Shown piece by piece: positions 25,692 through 63,896 of a stretch of 64,000 nt of DNA. Source of the DNA: an uncultured Bacteroidales bacterium (GTDB lineage Bacteria; Bacteroidota; Bacteroidia; Bacteroidales; FEN-979); the NCBI GenBank assembly GCA_903903985.1, contig CAIVAT010000006.1, positions 18,635-82,634 of the forward strand. Reading direction: 5' to 3'. The notes below the pieces were generated by a model. The model did no database searches and had not been told where the DNA came from. It worked only from the letters and a program-made list of their open reading frames with translations. The position numbers and the translations under genes are program-made. The stretch's first letter is position 1, and each line of letters begins with the position of its first letter.

Positions 25692-27143
25692 TTATCCCAT
25701 GGCTGGTATCGTAAACATGAAGGTCGCTCCAACCTCCTTTCCAGGTTCCACCCAAATTTTACCCCCATGCAGCTCTACAATTTTTTTACAGTGGGCTAGG
25801 CCGATACCTGTTCCGGCATATTCATTCCGGTTGTGCATTCGTTTGAAAATATCGAAAATTTTCACTGCATCTTTTTCATTAATTCCGATTCCATTGTCTT
25901 CAACCGAAAACAGCCATTCCAACCCAAAAATTTCGGCGGAGACTTTAATGACGACAGGAACATTTTTTTTCCGGAATTTTATTGCGTTATTTATCAGATT
26001 CTGGAACAGCAATCGCAACTCTGTCGGATACCCATTGACCATGGGAAGATTCGTAACAGATATATCCGCGCCACTTTCCTTAATCGAATCGGCCAGGTCA
26101 TCAAGTACCTCTTCCACGATTATATTGCAGTCAACGAGGGTCACCATCCGCTCTTTACCCAGCAGGGCATAGGTAAGCAGCCCATTTACCAGTTCATTCA
26201 TCCGCCCTGCCGAATTATAAATAAACTCAATGTATTTATTGCCGTTTGCATCCAGGTTCCCGGCATACTCCTCCTGGATGAGCTGTGTGAAATTGGTAAG
26301 TGTGCGCAATGGTTCCTGGAGGTCATGTGAAGCGATATATGTGAACTGTTCTATTTCCCTGGTGTGAATAGCCAATTCCCTGTTGATGGTTTCCAACTCG
26401 CTGGTGCGTTCGGCAATCCGGGTTTCAAGTGTTTCATTCAATCGGGAGATTTTTTCCTCCGCCGCAAGGTGCTCTGCGACAGCCTGACGCAATGAGTCGT
26501 TTTTTACACTGATGAAGATAACTAAAAGGATGGCCAGAAACAGGAGGAATGTCAATACACTGGATTCAATTATTTCGTACAATAACATTTCATCCCATGA
26601 TTGAGCACTAAAATCAAGTCCCAAAACGCCGATTGTTTTGCCGGAGTATCCATCTTTTAATGGGATCAGCACACTCCGCCATGTCCCCCATCGGTCGGTG
26701 GTTGGCCCCGAAAACAACTCTTTGCCGGTCCTGAATGGCAGGAAATCCTCATGTTTGGCCTCTGTATACTCTTGTCCCGGAGGTGAATAGTCTTTGGAAT
26801 CTTCCGGTTCAGAATCTGCCATGAAAAATATCTTCCCATTTTGTTCGGCATAGATATAGGCAAATCTTGCTTCTGGATTAACACGGATTATTTCTTTGAG
26901 GATCTTTTTTACGACTTGATATTGTGGTTTACCGGTATCGCCGGGTTTTACCTCCAACACCTTCAGATTCTCTAATGGAAAAGTCGCCGCAATCGACCTG
27001 GCTACCTGCAGAATATCATCCTTTTCATCCTTTTCAAACCGGGTATAAGTGAATCGGATGTAAAAGAAAGAAAGAACGGAAATTGCTAATAGCAGAATTA
27101 TTTCCGGTATTGGTTTTCTTATGAATTTGAGCAACTTCATCAA
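25692..27143 (-). CDS. Sensor histidine kinase with a periplasmic Cache/PDC-like domain
   Basis: Two TM helices flank a ~170-aa extracytoplasmic domain. Coiled coil, H-box FTYIASHDLQEPLR, and GTGIGLAHCKKIVELHGGKIWVE. Confidence 0.9.
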   Translation of the reverse strand: MMKLLKFIRKPIPEIILLLAISVLSFFYIRFTYTRFEKDEKDDILQVARSIAATFPLENLKVLEVKPGDTGKPQYQVVKKILKEIIRVNPEARFAYIYAEQNGKIFFMADSEPEDSKDYSPPGQEYTEAKHEDFLPFRTGKELFSGPTTDRWGTWRSVLIPLKDGYSGKTIGVLGLDFSAQSWDEMLLYEIIESSVLTFLLFLAILLVIFISVKNDSLRQAVAEHLAAEEKISRLNETLETRIAERTSELETINRELAIHTREIEQFTYIASHDLQEPLRTLTNFTQLIQEEYAGNLDANGNKYIEFIYNSAGRMNELVNGLLTYALLGKERMVTLVDCNIIVEEVLDDLADSIKESGADISVTNLPMVNGYPTELRLLFQNLINNAIKFRKKNVPVVIKVSAEIFGLEWLFSVEDNGIGINEKDAVKIFDIFKRMHNRNEYAGTGIGLAHCKKIVELHGGKIWVEPGKEVGATFMFTIPAMG

Positions 27144-27382
27144 AAAGCAGTTTTTAGTCCATGATTGGATAAAACATCCCTGTTTTCAACAATATGGATC
27201 ATCCCCTGCCGGGCCATCCCGGGCTTCCACTGGGATAAAAGCGGGAATCCGGGATATTTCTTTTTCTGTGCATTCGGAAATTTCATAAAGCTCTTGCTGG
27301 CGGTGACAATCCCGGAACCATCTGCATATAGCCGGTAACTTCCTGCAGGAGAATTTTTAGAGAGGTGGCTGTATTTCATCAT
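27140..27382 (-). CDS. Hypothetical 80-aa protein
   Basis: It fills the gap between two kinase genes, and its stop overlaps the downstream start by 4 nt. No recognisable motif. Confidence 0.3.
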   Translation of the reverse strand: MMKYSHLSKNSPAGSYRLYADGSGIVTASKSFMKFPNAQKKKYPGFPLLSQWKPGMARQGMIHIVENRDVLSNHGLKTAF

Positions 27383-27394
27383 GAAGTTTCAAAA

Positions 27395-29842: not shown

Positions 29843-29956
29843 GTTCTTCAGGTTGCGTTAACCCGGTAAATTCTTCAGCGGCTGAAAAATCCCTCTTGTA
29901 AAGGTAATCAATAAATCAATGGTTAGTAAACAGAACCTAAAAAGAGGGTGAATAAC

Positions 29957-32425
29957 TCATTCTGCAAAAGGAATCGTAAATCTGAAAGCTGATCCGGTAC
30001 CTATTACGGATTCTACCCAAATTTTGCCGCCATGCAATTCGACAATTTTTTTACAATGGGCCAAGCCGATGCCGGTTCCTTCATAATCGCTTCTGTTTTG
30101 CATTCGTTTAAAAATTACAAAAATCTTTTCGTAATCTTTTTCACCGATTCCGATGCCATTGTCCTTTATCGTGAACAGCCATTCGGTTCCGAGGGATTCT
30201 GCAGAAACAGTTACCTCCGGGCGAATCTCCCTCTTACTGAATTTGATCGCGTTGTTGATCAGGTTCTGGAATAACAGCCGTAACTCAGTCGCAAAACCAT
30301 ACACCCTTGGAAGTTCGTTTACTGTGATGACCGTATCGTTCATTTTAATGGAATCTGCGATGTCATCGAGCACCATTGCAACAACTTGATTGCAATCCAC
30401 CATGGTGCGTTCACTTTCTTTTCCCAGCAAGGAATATTCGAGCAATCCGGTGACCAGTTCGCTCATCCTGGTAGCAGATTTGTTTATAAAATCAATGTAA
30501 TTATTCCCATCGTCATCCAACCTGCCGGCATATTCCTCGTGGATCAACCTGGTAAAGTTTTTAAGGGTATTCAGCGGTTCCTGGAGGTCGTGTGTGGCAA
30601 TATAAGTAAACTGTTCAATTTCCCTTAGATGGAATGAGAGTTCCCGGTTGATGGTTTCAAGTTGATGGGTGCGTTCGGCAATACGTTGCTCAAGGGTCGC
30701 ATTGACATTTTGCAGTTCCTCCTCAACTTTTTTACGCATGGTAATATTTTGGCCTTGTGCGATGGTGGCGATCGGCGTCTGGCCATCCGGCGTAAAGATT
30801 GTGGCCGAATTCCACAACACAGTGTTAATTGATTGGTCCAGGTTCAGGATTTCAATCTCGACGCTCTCCCATCGCTCACCAGAAAATGTTTTGCGGATAA
30901 GTTCCATATACCTTTCAACCTGTTCGGGAGGGAAGAGTATCTCCAGCGGTTGTCCGATGACATCAGCCTCCAGCCAGCCTGTAAGGAATTCAAAAGCGTG
31001 ATTGAAGCGAGTGATGCGGAATTGCGTGTCCCATACAATGATGGGTGCATTTGCATAGTTGATCAGGTTTTCCAGGTAGGCATTGGTCTCCCTAAGCACC
31101 TTTTCAGCGAGCTTTTTTTCGGTGATATCATGGTAGGTGATGACAACGCCATATCCGTCCAGTGCCAATGGCGCAGCCGATACGTTTATCCAGGTGACCC
31201 TGTCATCACTTTTAAAAATGCCCATCTCCACATTGTCCACCTGGGTTTGTTCTTTAAGTGCCCGGACACTGGCATACTCTTCAACCGGCATGGGTGTGCC
31301 ATCGGCCCTGACGATCGTCCATTCTTCACCGCTGATTGAACGACTCTCGTGTTCGTCACGCGAGATGCCCAACAGGTTTTCCGTAATCTTGTTTGTTTCG
31401 ATGATATTTCCGAGGGAATCCGAAATTGTGATGCCAACAGGAAAGATATCAAACAACTTCTGGTATTTGGTGAGGCTTATGCTTAACAGTTGTTCTGACT
31501 TTTTCCGCTCTGATATATCCTGGAATACCGTGGCAAAGTTGCCCAGTGAAGGACAATAGACCGAAATTGTGAAATATTTGTCAAGAGGAGGGAAGTAGGA
31601 TTCAAACTTAACAGGCTGGCCAGTTGTGGCCACATGTAAATAGACGTCAAAATAAGGCGGTTCACCGACGCTGTATGCTTCCCGGCCTGTTTTCCCGATG
31701 ACAGTTTCCCTGGAAATACCGAGGGTTCGCTCAAAAGCAGGATTGATTTCAATAATGATATAGTCATTCGGGATACCTTGATCGTTGTAGGTTAGTTTAT
31801 GAAGAGCCGCACCTTCTGCCATATTCATGAACAAATTTTGAAATTTGGCTTCACTTTCCTTTAACAACTTGTTATGATAGGCTTTTTCAGAAATTCCCCT
31901 GGCAAATGCAGCCAGCATTTTTGAAATTTTGTCAAACTGTTGGGTTGACATCACTGGAACTTCATTCAAAGCGGCCATGAAATCCTCCCTGTTTGCTCCA
32001 ATTTCATCCGCATATTTGTTCAGGCTCACTTCATCCAGATCTTCATTCCGAACCTGGCCGATCATCCAGTTGGCGATATGGCGTCCGCCAACGGTGATGA
32101 TCGTGCCAGTTTCCTGCAATCCCGCAATCAAACATGTGGAACTCGTCCTATCTGATGCACTTTGCAGGCCATGAGATGCAGCTGTCAGGTAGCATTTTGA
32201 GAGTCCTTTGCCCGTTTTCCTGATAATTTCCTCGCACAACCTGCAAAAATGACTGGGTTTGGTAATGGGTGTTCCATCAGGATGGGTAATGATGGAAGCA
32301 ACGCCGGTAGCATCAGAAAACAGATCCTGTAATTGCTGGATTTCATCCAGGTTGAAAATGTCTCCGAACTTCAGAGCGGTTTCTTTTTTTGCAGCTGAGT
32401 TTATATCATCATCCCCGGTTTTCAT
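29957..32425 (-). CDS. PocR-domain + PAS sensor histidine kinase
   Basis: The N-terminal FSDATGVASIITHPDGTPITKPSHFCRLCEEIIRKTGKGLSKC fits the PocR sensory domain. PAS repeats follow, then the same transmitter core as 25692-27143. The start is set at ATG 32425 by analogy with the paralog at 36588. Confidence 0.88.
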   Translation of the reverse strand: MKTGDDDINSAAKKETALKFGDIFNLDEIQQLQDLFSDATGVASIITHPDGTPITKPSHFCRLCEEIIRKTGKGLSKCYLTAASHGLQSASDRTSSTCLIAGLQETGTIITVGGRHIANWMIGQVRNEDLDEVSLNKYADEIGANREDFMAALNEVPVMSTQQFDKISKMLAAFARGISEKAYHNKLLKESEAKFQNLFMNMAEGAALHKLTYNDQGIPNDYIIIEINPAFERTLGISRETVIGKTGREAYSVGEPPYFDVYLHVATTGQPVKFESYFPPLDKYFTISVYCPSLGNFATVFQDISERKKSEQLLSISLTKYQKLFDIFPVGITISDSLGNIIETNKITENLLGISRDEHESRSISGEEWTIVRADGTPMPVEEYASVRALKEQTQVDNVEMGIFKSDDRVTWINVSAAPLALDGYGVVITYHDITEKKLAEKVLRETNAYLENLINYANAPIIVWDTQFRITRFNHAFEFLTGWLEADVIGQPLEILFPPEQVERYMELIRKTFSGERWESVEIEILNLDQSINTVLWNSATIFTPDGQTPIATIAQGQNITMRKKVEEELQNVNATLEQRIAERTHQLETINRELSFHLREIEQFTYIATHDLQEPLNTLKNFTRLIHEEYAGRLDDDGNNYIDFINKSATRMSELVTGLLEYSLLGKESERTMVDCNQVVAMVLDDIADSIKMNDTVITVNELPRVYGFATELRLLFQNLINNAIKFSKREIRPEVTVSAESLGTEWLFTIKDNGIGIGEKDYEKIFVIFKRMQNRSDYEGTGIGLAHCKKIVELHGGKIWVESVIGTGSAFRFTIPFAE

Positions 32426-32479
32426 ATAAACTTTGTTTTTAGCTTTGGCAATATAACCCGGAACCAAGAGCCCATGGGG

Positions 32480-34396
32480 TCATGGTTTGTATTCAACAGG
32501 AATGTCAAATCTGAAGGTCGAACCAGCATTTTTTCTTGATTCTACCCAAATATGCCCTCCAAGCAATTCAACAAACCCTTTTGCAATCGACAGTCCAAGG
32601 CCATTGCCTTCATGGGTGCGGTTCAGGTCGAATTCTTTTTGCATAAAGGGCTCATAAATTCTTTTTTGGGTTTCATCGCTCATCCCGATCCCGGTATCTG
32701 TCACGTACCATTCAAGAACCGTCTCTTTTATTTCGCAGCCCAGGGTGATCGATCCTGTACTGGTAAACTTTACGGCATTATCAACCAGTTGGCCTAAAAT
32801 ATTGCCAAGGATGTCTTTATCCGAACCGATGTAAAAATCAGCGGAAGGAACCTGTGTGGCAATGATCAGCGACAGTTTTTTTTCTTTACAGGGCTCCCTG
32901 AACTTTTTCTGAATTTCATGAAGTACGGTAACCGGAGAAAATGAGCTGATTTTCAGTTCTTTATTTCCTGAAACGATGAGTGAAATATCCATGATGTTGT
33001 TTACGGTTGAAATCAGCCTGTTGCTGCTGGTATTCAACATGGCAAGATATTCTTCTCTTTCCTGGCTTGAAAGGGATGGGTCGGCCAGCATGGGCCCGAA
33101 TCCAAGGATCCCGTTCAAAGGGGTGAGAATTTCATGCCTGATATTGCGGATAAAGGCAGTTTTTAGCCGGTCGCTTGCTTCTGCTTTTTCTTTTGCTTTA
33201 AGCAGTTCATCTTCAAACCTTTTCCGGTCAGTAATGTCTCTCGAAATTCCAAAAGTCCCGATGATCTTCCCATCTTTGTCACGGAGTGGCATTTTTGTTG
33301 ACAACGCCCAGGTGTCGGGCCGATCGGCCCAGGTTTCTTTTTCTTCGGTGATCAAAGGGTTCCCGGAACGGATAATTTCCTGCTCATCAAGGTAAGCGGC
33401 CTGGGCATGCTCGCTGGTGAAGAAGTCGAAGTCGGTTTTACCAATGGCTTCGGCGGAGTTGCTGATGCAGAACGATTTGTTGTTGGATTTGCTGATCCTT
33501 AAAAACCTGCTGTCCAGATCTTTGAAATACAGGTGGTCAGGGATATTGTTCATCATGGCATCCATCAGGTACTTTTCCATCCTCAGTGCATCTTCTGCCT
33601 CTTTGCGCTCGGTGATATCAATGAAGCTGATCACTATTTCGGTGATGGCATTGTTGTTGTCCAACACCAGGGAACCATTGACTGCAAGCCAAACGATGTC
33701 ATCGGTGGAAGGGCGATAAACACCGACCCGGAAATCTTTGATTGGTTTTTTGGCTGACAGGACCTGGTTCACCGGAAACTTTTCTACGGGCAATGTGGAA
33801 TAGTCTTCATTCAGAAATTTCCAGTACGGATCAACATCCATCCTGCCGATCATTTGGGCTTCACTTAATCCCAGCAATTCTGAAGCTTTAGGATTGCTGA
33901 TGATGATGGAACTATCCGGTGCATGAAGGATAACACCGGCATCAAGATTCATGAGCAAGCCCCGGTATCTTTTCTCGCTTTCGCGCAAAGCCTCCTCTGT
34001 AGCCTTTCGCTCCTGGAGCAATTCCGTTTCATGCATCACCCTGATGATGGAAGGCAACAGCCTTTCGTGTTTTGATTTCAGGACATAATCCGTTGCACCA
34101 TTCAGCAGTGATTCGATGGCAGCGTCTTCTCCCATTTTCCCCGTTACGAAAATAAACGGGATGTGCGGATAATGGTTTTTTACCAATTGTAATGCTTCCA
34201 ATCCTGAATAATCCGGAAGTTCATAATCCGATAAAACAATATCTACCTTTTTTTCCTTCAGTACCTTCTCAAAATCATCCTCATCATCAACAACATAATA
34301 CTCATTGATGTCGCATGCGTTGGTAAGATAGGATTTTATCAAAATAGCGTCTGCTTCCTGATCTTCGAGATGAAGAATGTTGATCTTTTTATTCAT
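32480..34396 (-). CDS. Hybrid protein: N-terminal receiver + PAS domains + histidine kinase
   Basis: ILHLEDQEAD...LSDYELPDYSG receiver, PAS repeats, H-box IRNIRHEILTPLNGI, and GNGLGLSIAKGFVELLGGHIWVES. Confidence 0.9.
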   Translation of the reverse strand: MNKKINILHLEDQEADAILIKSYLTNACDINEYYVVDDEDDFEKVLKEKKVDIVLSDYELPDYSGLEALQLVKNHYPHIPFIFVTGKMGEDAAIESLLNGATDYVLKSKHERLLPSIIRVMHETELLQERKATEEALRESEKRYRGLLMNLDAGVILHAPDSSIIISNPKASELLGLSEAQMIGRMDVDPYWKFLNEDYSTLPVEKFPVNQVLSAKKPIKDFRVGVYRPSTDDIVWLAVNGSLVLDNNNAITEIVISFIDITERKEAEDALRMEKYLMDAMMNNIPDHLYFKDLDSRFLRISKSNNKSFCISNSAEAIGKTDFDFFTSEHAQAAYLDEQEIIRSGNPLITEEKETWADRPDTWALSTKMPLRDKDGKIIGTFGISRDITDRKRFEDELLKAKEKAEASDRLKTAFIRNIRHEILTPLNGILGFGPMLADPSLSSQEREEYLAMLNTSSNRLISTVNNIMDISLIVSGNKELKISSFSPVTVLHEIQKKFREPCKEKKLSLIIATQVPSADFYIGSDKDILGNILGQLVDNAVKFTSTGSITLGCEIKETVLEWYVTDTGIGMSDETQKRIYEPFMQKEFDLNRTHEGNGLGLSIAKGFVELLGGHIWVESRKNAGSTFRFDIPVEYKP

Positions 34397-34420
34397 TTGA
34401 TTGTTACCAAAGTGATATAG

Positions 34421-34496
34421 ACCTCGCGCTAACCTTCTCCCTGCAGCAGCGGGAATTCCCCTTCTCTTTTGGGAGCAGGGGCCAGGGGATGAGACA
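34421..34496. repeat. REP-like element, family D copy 2 (overlaps the 3' end of the kinase CDS)
   Basis: ctaaccttctccc...gggaattccccttctcttttgggagcaggggccaggggatgag. Confidence 0.7.
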
Positions 34497-36588
34497 TATT
34501 CGGCAAACTAAAATAAAAGGTTGCGCCGACTTCCTGTTCGCCTTCGGCGCCACATCGGCCCCCATGACGGCCAATGATCCGCTTTACATTGGCCAGGCCT
34601 ATCCCGACTCCCTCGAAATCCCTGGTTTTGTGCAACCGCTGGAATACTCCGAATAATTTCTCGGTGTACTTCATCGGGAAGCCTGCCCCGTTATCTTTTA
34701 TAAAAAATGTTGTTTCATTGCCGTTTGAAGCACTGCCAATATGGATGAGTGCTTCAGGCTTTTTCCCGGTATACTTGATTGCATTTGAAATGAGGTTGGT
34801 CCACACCTGCCTGATCAGTTCTTCATCACCGTATACATCAGGCAAGGATTCTATTTGAAATGTGATCGACCTGTTTTGCAACTCGGGTTCAAAAAATTTG
34901 ATGACCTTCTGGACCATCGGAGCCGATTGGATCCTGGATTTTCGCAATTCAGCCTGGTTCAGTCTTGAGAAGGACAAAAGTGCATCAATCAGTTGTGCCA
35001 TCTCGAAGGCTGAACTTGAAATCCTTTGCAGGTACCCGATTTTTTCTTCAGTCAGTTCAGTGGATTGATTATTCATGATCAGATCGATAAAACCCCTGAT
35101 ATGCCGCAGGGGGGCTTTTAGATCATGTGATACCGAGTAAGAAAAGGTTTCAAGTTCCCTGTTGACCTCTTCAAGTTCGGATGTGCGTTGTTTGACGCGC
35201 TGATCCAACTCCTGATTTAGTTCCCTGATTTGATTCTCTGCGATCTTGCGTTCAGAGATATTCCGAAAGTTAATGACAATGGCCCCGACGCTGGGCTCCA
35301 TCAGTAAATTTTTAAAAGTGCTCTCAATCCATATCCAGGATCCATTCTGATGCCTGAAACGATATTCCAGGGTTAATATTCGCACCGGATTTACCATTAT
35401 TTCATTCAGAAGTTTCAGTACAGCAGGGAGATCGTCGGGATGCGTGAGGTCGTTTGGGCTCAGGTCATGAAAAGACTGATTCAAATATCCAAACATCGTA
35501 TAGGAGGAGGGGCTTGCGTATTTGAACTTTCCCTGAATATCGACCAACACAATGCCATCCGGGGCATTCTCGATCAGTGCCTGGAAGTGTGTTTCGGTTT
35601 GTTTTATTTGCTCCTGGGCCTGCTTTTGTGCGGTAATATCGGTTGTGATCCCTATGAGCGCGATCGGCTCGCCACTTTCATTATGAATGATGGATGATGA
35701 AACGAATACAGGAAATTCACTCCCGTCTTTTCTTTGATTCAACAGTTCGCCATGCCAGCCTCCGCGCAACGTTGCAGGAAGAATGTCTGCTACATCCGAA
35801 AGGGAATTGCCTGGCGAGCGAACAAAACTGATCGGCTGGCCCAGCAATTCATGTTCCTCATACTGGTATGTTTTCAGAAAGGCCCGGTTGACAAAGACAA
35901 TCCTTTCATCCATGTCTGTGATGCTCACACATTCACCGACGCTTCTGACCGCATGCGCAAGCATGAGTATTTTTTCTTCAGCCTCCTTCTGGGCTGCTAT
36001 TTGCATTTTAAGTTGCAAATTATTGAAAGCACTGATTGAAAGTTCGTTAGCAAGAGTATACAGCATGTCTGATACCTTGATGAACTGTTTCATCGACATC
36101 ATCGGAACTTCAGCCAGGGCCTTTATAAAATCCTCTTTATCGGCACCGATTTCTTCTGCATACCGCACTATCCGTTCATCATCCAGTTCTTCGTTCCTTA
36201 CCTGACCGATTAACCAGTTGGCAATGTGTTTGCCGCCAACGGTAATGTCAACTCCGGCATCCCACAATTCTCCGCTAAGGCATGGCAGCACAACCGGACC
36301 TGATGAATTCCTGCTGCCAAGTGCGGCATCGGACAGGTAACAGTTTGAAAGTCCTTTTTCAGTTTTACGGATGATGTCCTTACATAGCCGGCAAAAATTA
36401 CTGGGCCTGGTGATCGGTAAGCCGTCAGGATATGTAATGATTGAAGCAACACCTGTTGCATCAGAAAACCGATCCTGCAGAAGCTGGATGTGTTCAAGGT
36501 CAAAGATGTCGTTGAACCGGAGATCGTTGTTAATTTCAGCAGTTGAAAACTCCGAAATGGAATGTATTATATTCTGCGCATTTTTCAT
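34429..36588 (-). CDS. PocR-domain + PAS sensor histidine kinase
   Basis: FSDATGVASIITYPDGLPITRPSNFCRLCKDIIRKTEKGLSNC, PAS repeats, H-box FSYSVSHDLKAPLRHI, and GVGIGLANVKRIIGRHGG. The last ~23 aa are encoded by the family D repeat. Confidence 0.88.
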   Translation of the reverse strand: MKNAQNIIHSISEFSTAEINNDLRFNDIFDLEHIQLLQDRFSDATGVASIITYPDGLPITRPSNFCRLCKDIIRKTEKGLSNCYLSDAALGSRNSSGPVVLPCLSGELWDAGVDITVGGKHIANWLIGQVRNEELDDERIVRYAEEIGADKEDFIKALAEVPMMSMKQFIKVSDMLYTLANELSISAFNNLQLKMQIAAQKEAEEKILMLAHAVRSVGECVSITDMDERIVFVNRAFLKTYQYEEHELLGQPISFVRSPGNSLSDVADILPATLRGGWHGELLNQRKDGSEFPVFVSSSIIHNESGEPIALIGITTDITAQKQAQEQIKQTETHFQALIENAPDGIVLVDIQGKFKYASPSSYTMFGYLNQSFHDLSPNDLTHPDDLPAVLKLLNEIMVNPVRILTLEYRFRHQNGSWIWIESTFKNLLMEPSVGAIVINFRNISERKIAENQIRELNQELDQRVKQRTSELEEVNRELETFSYSVSHDLKAPLRHIRGFIDLIMNNQSTELTEEKIGYLQRISSSAFEMAQLIDALLSFSRLNQAELRKSRIQSAPMVQKVIKFFEPELQNRSITFQIESLPDVYGDEELIRQVWTNLISNAIKYTGKKPEALIHIGSASNGNETTFFIKDNGAGFPMKYTEKLFGVFQRLHKTRDFEGVGIGLANVKRIIGRHGGRCGAEGEQEVGATFYFSLPNMSHPLAPAPKREGEFPLLQGEG

Positions 36589-46310: not shown

Positions 46311-46565
46311 CTATTTTTTATGCTCTGTAATGTATTCTGCCATGGAACGGATGGAGAAGAAAATTTTCTTACCGTCTTTCGGATCCTCAATTTTTATTCC
46401 GTAATTCTTCTCCAGTAAAACAATCAGTTCAAGTGCATCAATCGAATCCAGCCCTAAACCTTCGCCAAACAATGCGGAATCCGGATTTATGTCATCGGGA
46501 GTAATATCTTCCAGGTTTAATTGCTCTATTACTTCTTTTTTAAGTTTTAAAATCAATTCATCCAT
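46311..46565 (-). CDS. Acyl carrier protein
   Basis: 84 aa, with the phosphopantetheine site LGLDSIDALEL. Confidence 0.9.
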   Translation of the reverse strand: MDELILKLKKEVIEQLNLEDITPDDINPDSALFGEGLGLDSIDALELIVLLEKNYGIKIEDPKDGKKIFFSIRSMAEYITEHKK

Positions 46566-48888: not shown

Positions 48889-50190
48889 TCAGTTGTTCAT
48901 TGGACTTTTATACCGGTAGTAAATGCCGGTAATGAAGACAGTGGATAAGAAAAACAGGAATAATTTAATGGCCTGGGGAGCTATTTGCCACAGGCTGCCT
49001 CCGCGCAGAAAAATACTGTAATACCCGGTGATGGCCCAGTTCAGCGGACTGATCAGGGATACGGCCCGCATGAAGGGGGGCATGAGGTAGATTGGAACCC
49101 ACAACCCGCCCATGGCAGCAAGGATGATGACGGAAATAGACCCGAAGGCAGCTGCCTGCTGGTGTGTTTTCGCAATTGTTCCGATCATGAGACCGTACCC
49201 CACAGATGCCAGGGCAACAACCGTGGTCATGAGGAACAACCCAAGGATGTCGTCACCCAAAACCAGCGTTGGAAGTCCGAAAAGCGGCAAAAGCAGGATG
49301 CCGGCCAGTAACATGGCTACCGTTTGGGCAAGGCACACCATGAGGTACACGCCGACTTTTCCCATCAGCAGGGTCATATAGGATACGGGCATGGTGAGTA
49401 AGCGGAAAAGGCTTCCTCCTTCACGTTCCTGGATCAGACTTTGTGTTAGCGGTATCACGATGAAAAACATGGCAAATATCGTCCACGCCGGCACATTGTG
49501 CTGGGTTGAATTGGGTATCAGTTCCACTTCCCTGAATGATGGAAACTCCTCTTTAAATTGAAGGATTTCCCTGAAGCCTTCCCTTGGTGGTTTATACAGG
49601 GGCATTTGCATGGCAAGTTCCTTGTTGAATGTTGCAAAAACCCATTCAGTCTGTATCTTGTAGTAATTTTCCCTGACCGAGCTGATCAGTGCATTTTTAA
49701 ATGTTCTTTTAACCGTAGGGTCGAAGTAAATAATCACATTCACCGAATCCCTGAAAACGATCCCATCCAACAGCATCGGGTTACCTACCCCAAAGCCTGC
49801 CAGGGTTTTTGCAACATTAAGCCTGACATTGGCGCGCATGGTGCTGGTTGCACCTTTCGGAACAACGATGGCAATGAGGTAATCCCCTTTTTTTACTGCG
49901 TTTTTTGCATCAGCAGCGGTGATGGGCCTTTGGTTTAAACGATCGACAACTTCAAAAGATCCGGAACCATTGAACCCGTTTTTAATCCTCATCCCAAGGC
50001 TGTCGAGGTCGTTATCGACAAACAGCACCTGTACGCTGGGATCTTTTGTTAGCGTGCCCCATCCGGATTCCTGCATCAGCGATGAAATCACGATAAGCAC
50101 CACCGGCATGATAAAAAGCATGGCCAACCCCGATTTATCACGAATGAGCAGCAGCATCTCTTTGCGGCACACCGACAAATACTTCTTCAT
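48889..50190 (-). CDS. ABC-2 type exporter permease
   Basis: N-terminal TM helix, a large loop and a C-terminal 5-TM bundle. It lies directly downstream of its ATPase. Confidence 0.85.
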   Translation of the reverse strand: MKKYLSVCRKEMLLLIRDKSGLAMLFIMPVVLIVISSLMQESGWGTLTKDPSVQVLFVDNDLDSLGMRIKNGFNGSGSFEVVDRLNQRPITAADAKNAVKKGDYLIAIVVPKGATSTMRANVRLNVAKTLAGFGVGNPMLLDGIVFRDSVNVIIYFDPTVKRTFKNALISSVRENYYKIQTEWVFATFNKELAMQMPLYKPPREGFREILQFKEEFPSFREVELIPNSTQHNVPAWTIFAMFFIVIPLTQSLIQEREGGSLFRLLTMPVSYMTLLMGKVGVYLMVCLAQTVAMLLAGILLLPLFGLPTLVLGDDILGLFLMTTVVALASVGYGLMIGTIAKTHQQAAAFGSISVIILAAMGGLWVPIYLMPPFMRAVSLISPLNWAITGYYSIFLRGGSLWQIAPQAIKLFLFFLSTVFITGIYYRYKSPMNN

Positions 50191-50192: not shown

Positions 50193-50948
50193 TTAGTCCC
50201 TCATGTCTTTACCGGTGAGATGGATGAAGATGTTTTCCAGGTTTTTAAATTCCGGATGCCTGGCAAGAAGCTCGTTCGGATTACCCAGGGCAATGATGTT
50301 TCCCCGGTCGATGATCGCCACCCTTGTACAAAGGTGCTCGGCCTCTTCCATGTAATGGGATGTGTAAATGATCGTCACACCCTTTTTATTGATCTCCTTG
50401 AGATATTCGAGGATCACCACCCGCGACTGCACATCAATGCCGACAGTAGGTTCATCCAGGAAGAGAACCTTCGGATCATGCAACAACCCGGCGATGAGAT
50501 TTACCCTGCGTTTCATCCCTCCGGAATATTTGTTCACCGTTTTGTTTGCATGTTTTTCAAGTCCGAATTCATGCAGGTAATGGTTTATTTTGTCGCGCAG
50601 TTCCGAACCATACATCCCATACATGTTGCCGAAGAATGCAAGGTTCTCCCTTCCTGTAAGGGTTGGATAAAGTGCGATGTCCTGCGGAACAACCCCGATG
50701 ATCTGCTTGATTTTTTCAAGGTTTGTATGGCTGTCCATGCCATCGATCATCACACTCCCTTTTGTTGCAGGGAACAAACCGCAAAGGATAGAGATCGTCG
50801 TCGTTTTACCTGCCCCGTTGGGCCCAAGCAAACCGAAGATTTCATTGGGGAAAATATCCAGGGATATTGAATTCACTGCAGGTTCCTCTGCCCCTTTGTA
50901 AATTTTAGTAAGATCCCTTATTTCTATGAGGGGTTGCCCGGACATCAA
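50193..50948 (-). CDS. ABC transporter ATP-binding protein
   Basis: Walker A GPNGAGKTT, signature YSGGMKRR and Walker B LFLDEPT. Confidence 0.92.
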   Translation of the reverse strand: MMSGQPLIEIRDLTKIYKGAEEPAVNSISLDIFPNEIFGLLGPNGAGKTTTISILCGLFPATKGSVMIDGMDSHTNLEKIKQIIGVVPQDIALYPTLTGRENLAFFGNMYGMYGSELRDKINHYLHEFGLEKHANKTVNKYSGGMKRRVNLIAGLLHDPKVLFLDEPTVGIDVQSRVVILEYLKEINKKGVTIIYTSHYMEEAEHLCTRVAIIDRGNIIALGNPNELLARHPEFKNLENIFIHLTGKDMRD

Positions 50949-51973
50949 AATTTGATTTTTTTTAATTTCTGGTAAACTTTTTCTTCACTTACGGCGATGT
51001 CCAGAAGTTTTTCTGAGAGTGTCCCGTAATCTTCTTCGGGTTTTGAGCGGTTTTTACAATTTCGAGCACCCATATAGGTAAAATCGCGCCATTTGTTGGC
51101 GGTTTTACCCATCATATCCGATGCCTCTAGCAACTCCATATGATTCCCGAACATCTCACCGGCTTCTTTCAGGAAGGCTCCATAAATATATCGGAATCCT
51201 GCACCGCCGGTACCGAAATCTTCCGCCATGCGCAGAATTTGTCCCAGGTAAAAAGCAGCCTTGTCATCACCGTGTTTCCTGGGCCATTTTTTAAGGTCAC
51301 GTGCCATCCATCGCAACCCTTTCACGCCGATCAGCGGGAACGGGATACCAATCATTTCATAAACTGTCTTCTTTATCCCAAGGACGATGGCAGGTTTCAG
51401 GTCAACCGGTTTGTCAATGGCATGATTGATCCAGTACATCTTTCCCTGGGGAGCAAAAGCTCCTTTTGCATAACGCACGCGCAGAAGGTCTTCATAAGTG
51501 ATCAATTGGGGAAACTCCATCACCGTGTCACTCACATGATACATGTTTCCCTCCTTGCCGAAAACCACAAGGTTGTGCATGTTATAGTGCATGCGGTACT
51601 CGGGAGGAAAGAAAGTCAGTTGAAAAACACCCACCTGGCAGCCTGTGGGAATTCCCTTCTCCAGGTTGCGGTCAAGCATTTGCATGGCTTCCCTGGGGTC
51701 TTTGATCTTTTTAACCACGGTAGATTCGATGCCCAGGTATGCGGTAGACCGTTTAAATACCGTATTGGGAAGATTACGGAACGAGATCATCGGTGCAAAC
51801 TGGATCTTCAGAAAGGGAATATAACTGAAATACAGGCCATTCCCAATTCCAAAGGCCATCGGTTCAGATAATTCCAACCCATTGAATTTAAAAAGGTTCG
51901 ATGTGGCGCCGCTTTCACAATGCCCTGCCTGGCGGTGTGTATAGTTGATGATTGTTTTTGTTGCATCCATCAT
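50945..51973 (-). CDS. BtrH-N-terminal-like (papain/C39-like fold) protein, copy 1
   Basis: Conserved RQAGHCESG near the N-terminus, the candidate catalytic Cys. It aligns over its full length with 52511-53512. Its stop overlaps the ABC ATPase start by 4 nt. Confidence 0.65.
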   Translation of the reverse strand: MMDATKTIINYTHRQAGHCESGATSNLFKFNGLELSEPMAFGIGNGLYFSYIPFLKIQFAPMISFRNLPNTVFKRSTAYLGIESTVVKKIKDPREAMQMLDRNLEKGIPTGCQVGVFQLTFFPPEYRMHYNMHNLVVFGKEGNMYHVSDTVMEFPQLITYEDLLRVRYAKGAFAPQGKMYWINHAIDKPVDLKPAIVLGIKKTVYEMIGIPFPLIGVKGLRWMARDLKKWPRKHGDDKAAFYLGQILRMAEDFGTGGAGFRYIYGAFLKEAGEMFGNHMELLEASDMMGKTANKWRDFTYMGARNCKNRSKPEEDYGTLSEKLLDIAVSEEKVYQKLKKIKF

Positions 51974-52104
51974 TTGAATTCAATTATGATTAAACATTTG
52001 TAAAATATCATTGTCATTTTTTTCCGCGAAGATGCAAAGGTCCAAATTCAAAATTTTTTTACCTCTAAGCGCCTGAGCGGTGAAGGATAATTTTCATAGC
52101 AGGC

Positions 52105-52503
52105 TCATGATTCAATCTTCCGGAGTTGATCAACAGTAATGTTGAATGCTTCGGCATATTTCTGTAATGTTTTATCATTCAATCGTTTAAATACTCCGGG
52201 TTTAAAATGCCATTTGACCCGCCACAAAGAAATTCCGGCCATCATCGACAGGTTCATCGGGTCGAGCAGGTTTTTTTCCATGAAATAAACCACGGGGCTG
52301 GCTTTACCGGCCAGTACGCGTTGCCGCGCCTCTTCAATCCTTTCATGAAATAAATCCCATGCCTGTTGAAGGATAAGGCGGTCGGCTTCACCATGAAAAC
52401 CTACCGTTTTTTCAAAAGTGCCTCCATCCCCGTAGGAATAGGAGAGTTCACGATGTTGGCCATAAGCCTTGTCTTTGTAGACCGGATTGAGATTTTCTTC
52501 CAT
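52105..52503 (-). CDS. Small protein with a C-terminal HTH-like segment, copy 1
   Basis: Shares GKASP..Y.MEK...W.VK.H.K..VFK....L.KYA..F.ITV..L with 53736-54158. The start is set at ATG 52503 (MEENLNP). Confidence 0.55.
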   Translation of the reverse strand: MEENLNPVYKDKAYGQHRELSYSYGDGGTFEKTVGFHGEADRLILQQAWDLFHERIEEARQRVLAGKASPVVYFMEKNLLDPMNLSMMAGISLWRVKWHFKPGVFKRLNDKTLQKYAEAFNITVDQLRKIES

Positions 52504-52510
52504 TGTAAAT

Positions 52511-53512
52511 CTATTTGATGGTTGAAAGTTTTTTAAAGATCTTCTCCTCCCTGTTTGCGATTTCAATCAGCATATCTGCAAGAAAATCATATGATTGGTC
52601 AGGTTTTCCCCTTTTTTTGCAATTTCGCGAACCAAGATATGAAAATTCCCGCCAACTATTTGCATTTTCACCCATTTCAAAAGATAATTCCCTGAGCCAT
52701 GGCTGGTTCAATACCGTCGATGCTTCTTCAAGAAAAGCACCATAGATAAACCGGAAACCCGCACCTGCCGTGCCAACCTCTTCTTCCATGCGCAATACCT
52801 GGCCAAGATAATAGGAAGCTTTTGCCTCGCCAAGTTTTTTTTCCCATTTGCGCATCCGGCCGGCAAGATAACGGATCCCTTTCACCCCGATGAGCGGGAA
52901 GGGAATACCGACCATGTTATTTGCCGTTTTCCTGATACCTTTGACGATCGCTGGTTTGATATCGATCCTGGCAGGCACATGCGTGGGATAATACATCCGT
53001 CCCTGGGGTGCAAAAGCCCCTTTGGCAAATCGTACGCGCATCAGGTCTTCATAGTTGATCTCTACAAGGTTTTCCATCAGGGTATCGCTGATGAAATAGG
53101 TGCCGTTTTCATGACCATAAACAATCATGTTGTGCATGTTGTAATGCATGCGATACTCCGGGGGAAAGAATGGCAAATGAAAGGTGCCAACCTGGAGACC
53201 GACGGGATAACCCTGTTCCAGCACTTCGTTCAGCTTATCCATCGAATCCTTTGGATTACGGAACGTGTGAACCGCTGTTTTGACGCCAAGTTCCCTGGTT
53301 GCCCGGTCGAATACCTGTCCGGGCCAGACCCTGAAAGAGGTGGTTGGCGCATGTTGCATCTTCAGAAAGGGCAGGTAACTGAAAAAAAGCCCGGCGCCAA
53401 TTCCGAAAGCCATGGGCTCACTGATCTTAAAATGATGATAGTTGAGCAGGTTGCGTGTTACGCCACTTTCACAATGTCCGGCCTGCCTGTGTTCAAATGC
53501 TAGTTTTACCAT
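52511..53512 (-). CDS. BtrH-N-terminal-like protein, copy 2
   Basis: RQAGHCESG. Blocks identical to copy 1 include FFPPEYRMHYNMHN, AKGAFAPQG and GIPFPLIGVKG. Confidence 0.65.
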   Translation of the reverse strand: MVKLAFEHRQAGHCESGVTRNLLNYHHFKISEPMAFGIGAGLFFSYLPFLKMQHAPTTSFRVWPGQVFDRATRELGVKTAVHTFRNPKDSMDKLNEVLEQGYPVGLQVGTFHLPFFPPEYRMHYNMHNMIVYGHENGTYFISDTLMENLVEINYEDLMRVRFAKGAFAPQGRMYYPTHVPARIDIKPAIVKGIRKTANNMVGIPFPLIGVKGIRYLAGRMRKWEKKLGEAKASYYLGQVLRMEEEVGTAGAGFRFIYGAFLEEASTVLNQPWLRELSFEMGENANSWREFSYLGSRNCKKRGKPDQSYDFLADMLIEIANREEKIFKKLSTIK

Positions 53513-53559
53513 TTGTTGTCATTTTTTTACCTGTTCCGATCGATCCTTACTTGCCTAAC

Positions 53560-53735
53560 TCTGACCCTCTCGTCATGTACCTCACCCGGAGCCTCTCCTG
53601 AAGTACCTCATCCTAACCCTCTGCTGAAGTACCTCTCCCTAACCCTCTCCTTCAGGAGAGGGAATACTCCCCTTCTCCCCGGGGAGAAGGGGCTGGGGGA
53701 TGAGGTATTTACCCCATCGCCGGGGGATGAGGCAC
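53560..53735. repeat. Compound REP-like element, family D copy 3, with three 26-nt sub-repeats
   Basis: 26-nt units at 53577, 53603 and 53629 (gtacctc.c...cctct.c.t.a), then agggaatactccccttctcccc|ggggagaaggggctgggggatgagg (a perfect 12-bp palindrome) and an extra gggggatgagg. Confidence 0.8.
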
Positions 53736-54158
53736 TTACTTTAAAAACCCCGGATGCTTCAACTCCTCCACCGTTATTTCGAAAACCGAGGCATATTTGA
53801 CCAATGTCTCTGGTTTAATTTTTTTGAAAACTTTACTCTTCAAATGCCTTTTTACACGCCATTTTGGTATCTCCATATAAGCTGCAAGCATGGGAACCTC
53901 CATCAGAATCTTTTCCATGTAATATGCAATGGGACTTGCCTTTCCCTGGATGACAAGTTGCCTGACCTCGTCGAGACGCTGTTCTGCCGCATCCCAGCCC
54001 TGCTTGATGATCACCTGGTTGTTGGGATTCTGGTAGTCTACTTTTTGGGTAAACCCTTTGTCCTTGTCAAAATGGTAAAACAGTTCACGGTTATATTTGT
54101 ATATCAGTTCATTATCACTGGTCATTTTACCATTAGCTTCACTATTTGTATCTCTCAT
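53736..54158 (-). CDS. Small protein with a C-terminal HTH-like segment, copy 2
   Basis: Paralog of 52105-52503. The start is uncertain (54158 or 54125). Confidence 0.55.
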   Translation of the reverse strand: MRDTNSEANGKMTSDNELIYKYNRELFYHFDKDKGFTQKVDYQNPNNQVIIKQGWDAAEQRLDEVRQLVIQGKASPIAYYMEKILMEVPMLAAYMEIPKWRVKRHLKSKVFKKIKPETLVKYASVFEITVEELKHPGFLK

Positions 54159-54202
54159 GCATGTACATTTTAATTCCTGTTGCCTGGTGCCTCTTTTTTT
54201 TT

Positions 54203-54613
54203 CTAGCTGACCAGGAAAATTTTCAACTCGCAGCCTGCGATCAACTGGTTTCCTAAAAAGACCTCACCAAGCACAATGGTGGCATCAAACACCTCGTGCA
54301 ACACAGTCACGTGCGTCATGATCTCCTGACCGACCTTTGGAAAGGCATCAATTTTGAGGTTTCTGATCCCCCCTATAAAGCCCAGGGGGGCTTTCCCGTC
54401 TATAACTCCCGGTTTTGCCCCAACTCCGGCGGCAGCGGTCTGTGCCATGTTTTCGATCAGTCCGGGTTCCCGGAATTCACTGTTTACACAAAAAATATTT
54501 TCCTCACGGATCAGGAAAGCAGTCACCGTTGTTTTATCAACGATCTCCACCAACCTGTCCACCATCACCATCGGTGGTTTTTGCGGTATATTTACATTTT
54601 CAAATGATGCCAT
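54203..54613 (-). CDS. Hotdog-fold (FabZ/FabA-like) 3-hydroxyacyl-ACP dehydratase
   Basis: PQKPPMVMVDRLV...ENMAQTAAAG pattern, ~136 aa, and cluster context. Confidence 0.7.
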   Translation of the reverse strand: MASFENVNIPQKPPMVMVDRLVEIVDKTTVTAFLIREENIFCVNSEFREPGLIENMAQTAAAGVGAKPGVIDGKAPLGFIGGIRNLKIDAFPKVGQEIMTHVTVLHEVFDATIVLGEVFLGNQLIAGCELKIFLVS

Positions 54614-56873: not shown

Positions 56874-57131
56874 TTAATTTGGGTTGATGCGGTTGATGAT
56901 GTAACTGTAAAAATCCTGCAGCGATTTGACGTCTGCCATCTCCTCTGCCTTCATCTTGAAGCCAAAATTGTTTTCAACGATCACAAACAAATCAACAAAG
57001 TCAAGGCTGTCGATCCCGAGATCATTCTTCAGGTCGGCAGAGGGGTTTATCTGGGTTTCCTCAATTTCAATCTCATCGATCAGCAGTTGGTTTATTTTCC
57101 TGATGATCTCATCATTTTGCATCATAGTCAT
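56874..57131 (-). CDS. Acyl carrier protein
   Basis: 85 aa, with LGIDSLDFVDL. Confidence 0.9.
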   Translation of the reverse strand: MTMMQNDEIIRKINQLLIDEIEIEETQINPSADLKNDLGIDSLDFVDLFVIVENNFGFKMKAEEMADVKSLQDFYSYIINRINPN

Positions 57132-63297: not shown

Positions 63298-63344
63298 GAC
63301 GAACGGGCAATGTGCTGTAAATAAGCAGGATGCAGGCCTGATCC

Positions 63345-63450
63345 CCTGTCACCCTGTTCCCCTGTCACCCTGTCACCCTGTTACCCTGTCACCCTGTCAC
63401 CCTGTCACCCTGTCACCCTGTTACCCTGTCACCCTGTTACCCTGTCACCC
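63345..63450. repeat. Tandem array of 13 copies of an 8-bp unit (CCTGTCAC, with variants CCTGTTAC and CCTGTTCC)
   Basis: Counted directly: units start at 63345 and then every 8 nt up to 63448. Confidence 0.95.
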
Positions 63451-63896
63451 TTCCAGGTGGCAAGCACGCATCCGACCGCGCTCAGTCCGCAGAGGAACAG
63501 GGTATTGCTCCCTGTGGTTTTGATGACCTTGTCAAGGTCGGTCTTGTTGAAGCCGTCGGCGTAGGTTTTAAGCACTTTCGGATCGGTGGGCAGGATCTTT
63601 ACCGTTGCGGGGTATTCAAACCCTTCGGAGCCTGGAGTGACGCCATATTCATCATTGGTTTGGTAGACCCTGATAACAGGGTAGCCATGTTTGCGAAAGA
63701 GGTCGATCAATGCGTTGATGTATTCCATCGCCATCTCCTTATCCGGGAACATCCTCGGCAGGAAGGCTTTCTGGATGTCGATCACCAGCAGGGCGGGATT
63801 GATGGGTTCTTTAGGCTTTTCGGCTTTATCCTGGGCAAAGGATGGCATGGCAACGACCATTAACAGGATGGCCAGGAAGGTGGTCAGTTTTTTCAT
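63429..63896 (-). CDS. Secreted isochorismatase-family (cysteine hydrolase) protein, 3'-truncated by the 8-bp array (possible pseudogene)
   Basis: Signal peptide, LLVIDIQKAF and the catalytic-Cys block LFLCGLSAVGCVLAT. The ORF then runs straight into the repeat (WKGDRVTG-stop). The usual ~40-50 C-terminal residues are missing. Confidence 0.65.
   Translation of the reverse strand: MKKLTTFLAILLMVVAMPSFAQDKAEKPKEPINPALLVIDIQKAFLPRMFPDKEMAMEYINALIDLFRKHGYPVIRVYQTNDEYGVTPGSEGFEYPATVKILPTDPKVLKTYADGFNKTDLDKVIKTTGSNTLFLCGLSAVGCVLATWKGDRVTG

Follow-up and report, generated by a model that had tools for sequence, protein, structure and literature searches.

The closest described counterparts of the region studied here are the darG-darH-darI-darJ genes of Chitinophaga pinensis and Flavobacterium johnsoniae (Fjoh_1098-1095), which lie in the same kind of pigment cluster and encode, in this order, a small protein, a BtrH_N protein, an ABC ATPase and an ABC-2 permease. 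The corresponding genes of Azoarcus BH72 are darD-darE-darF, and two canonical relatives (L076 and L041) have the order DarA-DarB-DarG-DarH. Curated NCBIfam models exist for both proteins of the pair, namely DarG_fam (NF053536) and flexirubin_DarG (NF053545) for the small one and DarH_acyl ("BtrH-related acyltransferase DarH", NF053550) for the large one. Searches of the accessible literature found no experimental work on DarG or DarH proteins, and Schoner et al. proposed a different protein, the ligase-like FlxW, for the joining of polyene and dialkylresorcinol.

The window, by which we mean the entire 64-kb stretch of Bacteroidales DNA analyzed, contains the same genes in the same order but with two tandem cassettes rather than one. 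Unlike the known loci, its cassettes lie within the polyene (flx) portion of the cluster, no darA or darB occurs within the 64 kb, neither DarG copy reaches the flexirubin_DarG cut-off (DarG2 scoring 112.6 against 170), and repeat elements lie inside a cassette. A sequence-only reading of this DNA had found the pairing of a small with a large protein inexplicable from known systems. That view did not hold, as the pairing is already known from the Chitinophaga, Flavobacterium and Azoarcus clusters and it is the doubling that is new. By sequence comparison, the region is a doubled variant of the known module, made up of two old sister copies of darG-darH.

The enclosing flexirubin-type aryl-polyene cluster (39359-61133, minus strand) was recognized by the NCBIfam equivalogs FlxA (830 bits), FlxB (393), rSAM_ladder_B12 (423), LolA2_flexi (212) and LolB2_flexi (85). 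It opens with the FlxA tyrosine ammonia-lyase, the FlxB reductase, a KS, an ACP, an LpxL-like acyltransferase, a B12 radical-SAM protein and a hot-dog dehydratase. These are followed by darG2-darH2-darG1-darH1 with the ABC genes, a 4HBT thioesterase, a KS, a 230-aa protein of unknown function and the second of the two ACPs encoded (46311-46565), and the cluster ends with KS/CLF pairs, a deacetylase, LolA2 and LolB2. No homologues of FlxU, FlxV or FlxW were found anywhere in the window. DarA and DarB were likewise missing from every locus of this H1/H2 type, which weighs against the acyl-transfer explanation given below.

The two small and two large open reading frames have the positions, minus-strand orientation and order first proposed for them. 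The first, darG2 (53736-54158, 140 aa), was identified as an open reading frame with a DarG_fam match, and is followed by darH2 (52511-53512, 333 aa), the darG2 paralogue darG1 (52105-52503) and darH1 (50945-51973, 342 aa). Next come the darI equivalent, an ABC transporter ATPase (50193-50948; PF00005, E 6e-33), and the darJ equivalent, an ABC-2 type permease (48889-50190; PF12698 and PF01061), both also on the minus strand. The open reading frame list started darG1 at a TTG within darH2 (52566). As the alignment to the DarG model starts at Met22 of that longer frame, the ATG at 52503 appears from the sequence to be the likelier start, giving a protein of 132 aa. The cassette is wired to the ABC exporter as the sequence-only reading supposed, the stop of darH1 overlapping the start of the ATPase gene at a junction that reads TTT TGA TG (TTTTGATG). 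This overlap is real and has the reported length of 4 nt if the ATPase starts at TTG, shrinking to only 1 nt with an ATG start.

The two large proteins can be aligned along their entire length (56% identity, E 4e-143), and their proposed BtrH-like nature is borne out by Pfam BtrH_N and DUF4872, each of which matches both proteins with the whole model covered (E 1e-40 to 4e-52). Both exceed the DarH_acyl cut-off of 300 bits, DarH2, the more like canonical DarH, with 421.3 and the derived paralogue DarH1 with 394.6. Candidate catalytic triads occupy matching sequence positions (Cys19/His133/Asp149 in DarH1, Cys14/His127/Asp143 in DarH2). Relatives retain the Cys in 110/110 and the His in 112/112 proteins, the conserved pair on which the BtrH-like assignment depended, and the Asp is conserved as well (110/112, the other two having Glu). 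Both proteins are basic (pI 9.3-9.4), which would suit the binding of an acidic ACP. The nearest solved structures to the AF2 model of DarH1 (pLDDT 91.8) in a Foldseek search were AziU3 (E 4e-10), CtaG (2e-9) and CcbD (5e-8), and the best full-length matches take in the DUF4872 helical domain.

CtaG, the papain-like ligase of closthioamide biosynthesis (PDB 9QUZ and related entries; TM 0.63-0.70, 15% identity), depends on a carrier protein and handles an acyl group bearing a 4-hydroxyphenyl ring. The spacing of its Cys11/His128/Asp144 matches that of the DarH2 triad; the enzyme is inactive when any of the three is mutated, and an intermediate with the acyl group covalently bound to the Cys has been detected (PMC7183216; PMC12865890). 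Unlike the ester proposed for DarH, the CtaG product is an amide formed on an amine bound to a second carrier protein, and CtaG is described as acting alone, without a small partner, the passages on it mentioning no coupling to an exporter. The lincosamide condensation enzymes CcbD and LmbD (PDB 7YN1, 7YN2, 9DKR; TM ~0.62, 13-14% identity) have Cys19/His131 and an acidic residue, CcbD being carrier-protein dependent with a Cys-His-Glu triad and a ping-pong mechanism (PMC12945683). These enzymes take the acyl group from a carrier protein, which they contact through Arg-rich C-terminal helices, and pass it to a free acceptor; CcbD has also been solved in complex with its carrier protein. They belong to an actinomycete antibiotic pathway and acylate an amino sugar, the product again being an amide. 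BtrH of butirosin biosynthesis, the founder of Pfam BtrH_N, moves an ACP-bound acyl group onto a free acceptor. Its acceptor is an amine of an aminoglycoside, and the Bacillus pathway to which it belongs also includes an ATP-grasp enzyme and a decarboxylase. This context is missing at the present locus, and the DarH proteins are therefore not BtrH orthologues. The best match, AziU3 (TM 0.64-0.66, 18% identity), was solved with a separate AziU2 chain (PDB 8GS1, 7WUW) and provides a precedent for a two-protein enzyme of this fold, although this aziridine synthase of the azinomycin pathway eliminates sulfate and transfers no acyl group.

The two small proteins share sequence as reported (115 residues aligned, 41% identity, E 5e-32) and pass the DarG_fam cut-off of 70 bits (DarG1 117.4, DarG2 104.1). 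Their suggested resemblance to XRE-type helix-turn-helix proteins was upheld by structure but not by profile. In the AF2 model of DarG2 (pLDDT 80.5 overall, >94 for residues 61-130), a disordered N-terminus leads into a beta-hairpin and a long helix, followed by a C-terminal XRE-like domain of five helices; Foldseek matched the model to SinR, DdrO, 434 repressor and the alpha-domain of HppE, whereas Pfam HTH models gave no match to DarG even at E <= 10. Neither 8GS1 nor 7WUW contributed a chain to the 50 listed fold matches of DarG. Conservation extends to Tyr28 and Trp55, which lie in the N-terminal hairpin and the long helix, to a G-x-x-S-P...M-E motif opening the domain, and to His105, near-invariant across paralogues, in the helix aligned with the HTH recognition helix.

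DarG proved to be a conserved partner, lying directly upstream of DarH in 103 of 112 cases. The intervening gap is at most 20 nt in 85 of these 103 pairs, with overlaps of 1 or 4 nt in 11, and G2 always accompanies H2 and G1 H1. Behind each of three distant DarG representatives begins a DarH whose N-terminus carries HCESG, and one DarG homologue directly precedes an ABC ATPase without a DarH. The arrangement is broken in four relatives (L004, L006, L012 and L032), in which darG2 does not immediately precede darH2, indicating that co-transcription of the pair is not obligatory; three of them (L006, L032 and L004) have an opposite-strand gene block at this junction, which spans 8.5 kb in L006 and L032.

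Two cassettes, drawn from three paralogue types, are present in ~33 of 77 related Bacteroidales species loci. The reported duplication is real, although it is not a simple recent tandem copy: the paralogues are old, and many species retain the pair while others lack it. In our reading of a neighbor-joining tree, H1 and H2 fall into two distinct clades whose internal branching broadly agrees. They differ at 18 clade-fixed positions, at 8 of which DarH2 holds the commonest residue of other DarH proteins, and H1 is always the exporter-adjacent paralogue.

We favor an explanation, with a probability of about 60% for the whole, in which the two paralogous cassettes serve acyl off-loading by DarH with DarG as its partner and have two specificities. 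The sequence-only proposal of ACP-dependent acyl transfer ahead of export agrees with the NCBIfam name and would be in keeping with the folds of CtaG and CcbD. DarH would be a cytoplasmic enzyme of the BtrH/CtaG/CcbD fold, most likely ping-pong, whose active-site Cys accepts the finished aryl-polyene chain from the ACP as a thioester that is then attacked by the hydroxyl of a lipid acceptor (a dialkylresorcinol in classical flexirubins) to give an ester. Judging from gene names and order, the product would pass through the translationally coupled ABC-2 exporter to LolA2/LolB2 and the outer membrane. Against this, the characterized acyl-transferring relatives of DarH all make amides and AziU3/AziU2 is not a transacylase. 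DarG is probably a small XRE-fold accessory that serves DarH, the exporter or both as a partner or adaptor and is not a classical repressor, this being the least certain step, and the two cassettes most likely differ in acceptor or acyl chain.

It is possible, though clearly less probable, that DarG is an ordinary XRE-family DNA-binding regulator of the cassette or cluster, copied with darH by adjacency alone, and that DarH acts by itself. The C-terminal 60 residues of DarG superpose on SinR, 434 repressor/Cro, DdrO, HipB and C.AhdI (TM 0.6-0.78 by target length, rmsd ~2 A), and with a true XRE fold and a basic C-terminal half (pI 9.8) the modeled protein may bind DNA. One homologue is named "helix-turn-helix domain-containing protein" at NCBI, no small subunit features in the structures or descriptions of CtaG and CcbD, and some relatives have the 8.5-kb separation noted above. 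We nevertheless prefer a partner role, given the failure of Pfam HTH models, the conserved residues described, the tight G-to-H junctions, and the presence of two darG copies within one operon. Both copies are internal to it, darG2 starting 44 nt and darG1 7 nt behind the gene before, and neither has an upstream regulatory region of its own. Moreover, the XRE-like fold is a non-DNA-binding domain in HppE, HEPD and MPnS.

We consider it unlikely that DarH is a hydrolase, either a thioesterase freeing the polyene acid from the ACP or a C39-like peptidase serving the exporter to which darH1 is joined in register. The C39-like peptidase 3erv is among the weaker structural matches of DarH1 and Peptidase_C39_2 matches some homologues, but CtaG and CcbD, two of the three best matches, are transferases and AziU3 is neither transferase nor hydrolase. 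The ABC system is ABC-2/DrrAB-like and not a bacteriocin exporter, no precursor peptide is evident, and a dedicated 4HBT thioesterase gene already adjoins the permease gene. Flexirubin-type pigments also require an ester-forming step, for which no enzyme is proven. There is similarly little to recommend the second cassette as a redundant copy in the course of loss. Close relatives (L039, L055, L063 and L068) do have G1-H1 alone in an otherwise identical cluster (H1 87-91% identical), and the near relatives of the window have repeats inserted at the G2-H2 junction or other genes dividing it. However, H2 is retained in ~35 species at 69-93% identity with every triad residue intact, its divergence from H1 is substantial, and the replacement of H1 or H2 by the third paralogue type in L028 and L045 resembles module swapping and not decay.

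The "family D repeat" of the sequence-only reading is genuine, the 223-nt darG2-darH2 spacer (53513-53735) comprising four tandem 26-nt units, a perfect 24-nt palindrome and two 21-nt units, with an RNA folding at -93.7 kcal/mol (z = -3.7). The AT-rich darG1-darH1 spacer (51974-52104), unusually long for such a junction at 131 nt, showed no match to this element. The same hairpin repeat family fills the darG2-darH2 spacer in L003, L010, L005, L002 and L066, more distant relatives having gaps of at most 20 nt without it, and a related copy of the repeat lies at 15125-15165 of the window.

The two darG–darH cassettes occupy positions 50945 to 54158 of the window, on the minus strand, as four open reading frames in the order described in the sequence-only reading: darG2 (53736–54158, 140 aa), darH2 (52511–53512, 333 aa), darG1 (132 aa) and darH1 (50945–51973, 342 aa), followed by an ABC ATPase gene. 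The ORF list begins darG1 at a TTG inside darH2, but an ATG at 52503, 7 nt past the darH2 stop, is the likelier start, and the DarG family model begins exactly there. The 3' end of darH1 reads TTT TGA TG, so its stop overlaps the start of the ABC ATPase gene, by the 4 nt reported earlier if a TTG is taken as start and by 1 nt if an ATG is taken. The likeness claimed within each pair of proteins is also borne out, with DarH1 and DarH2 aligning end to end at 56% identity (E 4e-143) and DarG1 and DarG2 at 41% identity over 115 residues (E 5e-32). A scan of 50800–54300 found no terminator between the two cassettes; its sigma-70 promoter and terminator counts equaled shuffle expectation, under a consensus that is ill-suited to Bacteroidota.

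The sequence-only reading could not account for the pairing of a small and a large protein from known systems. A 2026 paper that compares flexirubin genes gives, for Chitinophaga pinensis and for Flavobacterium johnsoniae Fjoh_1098–1095, a hypothetical protein (G), a BtrH N-terminal domain protein (H), an ABC ATPase (I) and an ABC permease (J) (PMC12968099), and the Azoarcus arcuflavin paper lists darA, darB, the conserved hypothetical darD, the BtrH-like peptidase darE and the ABC ATPase darF (PMC3949708). The pairing is therefore that of a named and curated dialkylresorcinol (dar) gene pair, and it had seemed unexplained only because the dar names were not recognized. No experiments on DarG/DarH or Fjoh_1097/1098 were found in the literature searched. 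What the locus holds is a known and curated module with a predicted function, in a doubled form that is prone to rearrangement; the earlier description and its functional analogy to BtrH were sound.

BtrH_N and DUF4872 each match DarH1 and DarH2 over the full length of the domain (E 1e-40 to 4e-52), in agreement with the earlier assignment of the two proteins as BtrH-like, and both proteins pass the curated 300-bit cut-off of the NCBIfam equivalog NF053550, “BtrH-related acyltransferase DarH,” over the full model length (394.6 and 421.3 bits). An AlphaFold2 model of DarH1 (pLDDT 91.8, pTM 0.90) predicts an alpha/beta N-terminal domain and a helical C-terminal domain. Sequence searches of the PDB, run with profiles of DarH and of DarG and with DarG2 alone, gave chance-level matches at most, and the informative structural comparison came from fold searches only. 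With the DarH1 model, Foldseek matched AziU3 from the AziU2–AziU3 complex as the nearest solved structure (E 4e-10), CtaG (E 2e-9) and CcbD (E 5e-8), of which a complex with its carrier protein has been solved too, each over the whole length in 340 to 375 alignment columns. Both DarH proteins are basic (pI 9.3–9.4), and reading their sequences by eye showed no signal peptide-like N-terminus.

The candidate catalytic triad comprises Cys19, His133 and Asp149 in DarH1 and Cys14, His127 and Asp143 in DarH2. Among relatives in other genomes, the cysteine is present in 110/110 complete sequences and the histidine in 112/112, as expected from the proposed papain-like Cys/His pair; the third residue is Asp in 110 of the 112 and Glu in two. 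By sequence position, these residues parallel C11, H128 and D144 of CtaG. This enzyme takes a 4-hydroxybenzoyl group from its carrier protein and transfers it to an amine borne by a second carrier protein, through an acyl-Cys intermediate, and requires Cys11, His128 and Asp144 (PMC7183216; PMC12865890). CcbD works by the same ping-pong scheme with a Cys–His–Glu triad and uses C-terminal arginines to bind its carrier protein (PMC12945683), and BtrH itself was put into the structural class of CtaG by the CtaG authors (PMC12865890). The butirosin context (BtrI ACP, BtrJ ATP-grasp, BtrK decarboxylase) was not found around the cassettes, where the neighbors are flexirubin-type only.

DarG1 and DarG2 belong to NF053536, “DarG family dialkylresorcinol biosynthesis protein,” scoring 117.4 and 104.1 bits against a subfamily cut-off of 70. 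Neither reaches the 170-bit cut-off of the flexirubin DarG equivalog NF053545 (116.2 and 112.6 bits), and the DarB-linked DarG proteins of two other loci, L076 and L041, also fall just below it (155.7 and 167.2 bits). The AlphaFold2 model of DarG2 (pLDDT 80.5, and >94 for residues 61–130) has a disordered N-terminus, a beta-hairpin (24–42), a long helix (45–70) and a very confident helical domain (76–134). As modeled, this domain has the five helices of an XRE/Cro fold and superposes on SinR, 434 repressor, Cro, DdrO, P22 c2 and HipB; target-normalized TM scores for XRE-fold targets were 0.6–0.78 and rmsd values 1.8–2.6 Å, with weak E-values (0.05–0.4) because the domain is small. No HTH family (e.g., HTH_3, HTH_31) was matched in Pfam at E ≤ 10 by DarG1, DarG2 or one canonical DarG. 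The small proteins had been likened to an XRE-type HTH, and this stands at the level of the fold but not of the sequence profile. The modeled domain also superposes on helical domains of HppE, HEPD and MPnS, and we know of no DNA binding by that domain in these three enzymes. Residues kept across 107 DarG sequences include Tyr28, Trp55, G72-x-x-S75-P76...M81-E82, His105, Phe111 and Tyr122, and not all of these belong to the HTH domain. With 439 cluster representatives at E ≤ 0.001, the family is small; the best 150 of these are all stand-alone proteins of 63–176 aa, with no DarG–DarH fusion, which we had sought as a sign of physical interaction.

A survey of one genome per species gave 77 loci, all from uncultured Bacteroidales-like genomes. 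DarG lies directly upstream in 103/112 DarH genes, with G-to-H gaps of ≤20 nt in 85 of the 103 and overlaps of 1 or 4 nt in 11; the partnership proposed for the small and large proteins is thus conserved, and the darG–darH pair acts as one unit. The nine remaining DarH genes comprise four at contig edges and five H2 copies (L004, L006, L012, L013 and L032). By a hand tally that includes edge and rearranged cases, in a sample biased to DarH2 relatives, ∼33 of the 77 loci have two cassettes, ∼18 have only a G1–H1-type pair in an otherwise identical cluster, and ∼19 have a single, more distant pair. The G1–H1-only loci include very close relatives of the window (L039, L055, L063, L068).

In a midpoint-rooted neighbor-joining tree, H1 and H2 form separate clades whose internal branching is broadly similar by eye, and canonical DarH groups with H2; on this ground we rejected a recent tandem duplication. 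Eighteen differences between H1 and H2 are fixed by clade, and H2 has the commonest residue of other DarH proteins at eight of them, so H2 looks canonical-like and H1 derived. Of the two, the exporter-adjacent copy is always H1. The duplication is old; many species have retained it and others have probably lost it. A third paralogue type, with its own clade and Glu instead of Asp as third triad residue, occurs in two loci: in the place of the H2 type in L045 (8058–9495; G3H3–G1H1) and of the H1 type in L028 (8355–9784; G2H2–G3H3).

The junction between darG2 and darH2 is itself variable. The repeat recognized earlier in the 223-nt spacer (53513–53735) consists of four tandem 26-nt units, a perfect 24-nt palindrome and two 21-nt units, and the spacer RNA has a predicted folding energy of -93.7 kcal/mol (z = -3.7). 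Long G-to-H spacers are nearly confined to the closest relatives of the window. Members of this hairpin repeat family, in differing numbers of copies, also occupy the darG2–darH2 spacers of five loci (L003, L010, L005, L002, L066). We rejected a CRISPR-like reading of the 26-nt units, as they abut without spacers and belong to a hairpin family that relatives have at this junction too. In the close relatives L006 (1485–9820) and L032, darG2 and darH2 are separated by an opposite-strand block of 8.5 kb that fills exactly this junction, and the block is also found upstream of H2 in L004; darG2 and darH2 therefore need not be co-transcribed. The block encodes a C45 Ntn acyltransferase/hydrolase (FlxW-like), a phytoene-desaturase-like protein, an MMPL, acyltransferase and methyltransferase fusion, and a second LolB2 and LolA2, the latter 36% identical to the LolA2 of the window. 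No homologues of its first three genes were found within the 64-kb window.

The surrounding genes form a flexirubin-type aryl-polyene (flx) cluster: the tyrosine ammonia-lyase FlxA (830 bits, cut-off 700), the reductase FlxB (393, 340), LolA2_flexi (212, 125) and LolB2_flexi (85, 60) are encoded co-directionally with several ketosynthase genes and two ACP genes (56874–57131, 46311–46565). Further products of the cluster are an LpxL-like acyltransferase, a hot-dog dehydratase, a 4HBT thioesterase and a B12 radical-SAM protein. Homologues of FlxU, FlxV and FlxW were not found within the 64-kb window, and tblastn with DarA and DarB of L076 detected neither gene within it or in any H1/H2-type locus. 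The same search placed them beside darG–darH in seven distant loci (L041, L046, L062, L065, L073, L075, L076), with DarB directly before DarG–DarH in all and DarA too except in L046. In L062 (6851–9082), a more distant relative, darA and darB lie inside the flx cluster between the dehydratase gene and darG, the very slot that the second cassette fills in the window.

Usable contigs were available for four distant DarG representatives, three of which directly precede a DarH N-terminus with the HCESG motif. The fourth (L082, L083) follows a PagL-like gene and lies directly before an ABC ATPase gene, with a 4-nt overlap and without DarH; in L083 (3716–5407), one of the two contigs that carry it, the ORF of the ABC-2 permease ends in a phosphopantetheine-binding (ACP) domain, although the gene call may have merged two genes. 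This case hints that the exporter may be as much a working partner of DarG as DarH is, and that the exporter may be where ACP-bound cargo is handed over.

Taking these observations together, we favor, at a probability of about 0.6, a reading in which each DarH would off-load an acyl chain from its ACP by way of an acyl-Cys intermediate, pass it to a hydroxyl acceptor and deliver the product to the coupled ABC-2 exporter, with DarG as an accessory partner of XRE fold and the two cassettes supplying two specificities. In this reading, family membership, fold, triad positions and gene order are shown by the analysis; the substrates, the ester chemistry and the role of DarG are inferred. The two ACP genes of the cluster provide the context for the predicted carrier-protein-dependent transfer. 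That DarH is instead a hydrolase is less likely; the structural relatives CtaG and CcbD are acyl-transferring enzymes. Redundancy of the cassettes, which the loci with G1–H1 alone might suggest, is likewise less likely beside the long-separated H1 and H2 clades; if it were so, the locus would be merely a lineage-specific duplication of an annotated gene pair.

The main rival takes DarG for an ordinary DNA-binding regulator, which the repressor-like fold of the DarG2 model would allow; with the Pfam result on the other side, we regard it as somewhat unlikely. A bolder proposal, which we consider rather improbable, is that DarG is no DNA-binding regulator but an XRE-fold specificity or adaptor subunit. 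Each DarG would join its cognate DarH in a two-protein transacylase, in the way that AziU3 pairs with AziU2, and may also dock DarH to the ABC exporter; the G–H cassettes, of at least three types, would be swappable modules that each set the acceptor lipid esterified to the aryl-polyene, so that this Bacteroidales lineage, without darA/darB at these loci, would make aryl-polyene esters other than flexirubins.

Among the chemotaxonomic markers of Bacteroidota, flexirubin-type pigments are a classic. To our knowledge, the step that links aryl-polyene acid and phenolic lipid has not been demonstrated for any enzyme; the literature searched proposes an enzyme other than DarH, namely FlxW, which Schoner et al. 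guessed to join polyene to resorcinol (PMC3992019). For DarH, the favored acyl-transfer reading can draw on solved and mechanistically dissected structural relatives, CtaG and CcbD, which make a concrete ping-pong, ester-forming mechanism testable. Because the cassettes are doubled and swapped in a lineage that has no dialkylresorcinol genes close by, they provide a natural experiment on acceptor specificity and on the role of the small XRE-fold partner.

Repeats are also found elsewhere in the window. A copy related to the darG2–darH2 spacer repeat lies at 15125–15165, intergenic within a region (12277–16901) in which NrfD-like and 4Fe-4S dicluster proteins stand between two proteins with glycine-cleavage H-protein domains, one of which is fused to a periplasmic-binding-protein-like domain. 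At 3910–8439, a 1509-aa ORF has internal repeats with a period of ∼1 kb (234-nt segments of 68–76% identity) and a recurring 32-nt motif. Three consecutive minus-strand genes at 25692–32467 (483, 815 and 836 aa) share segments 62–74% identical at fixed spacings of 1697 and 2568 nt and so look like tandem paralogues; the third has a 231-nt repeat in common with the adjoining pair of sensor histidine kinases (32480–36588). Finally, a tandem array of ∼19 copies of an 8-nt unit (CCTGTCAC/CCTGTTAC) at 63321–63472 reaches the stop-codon (low-coordinate) end of the minus-strand ORF 63429–63896.
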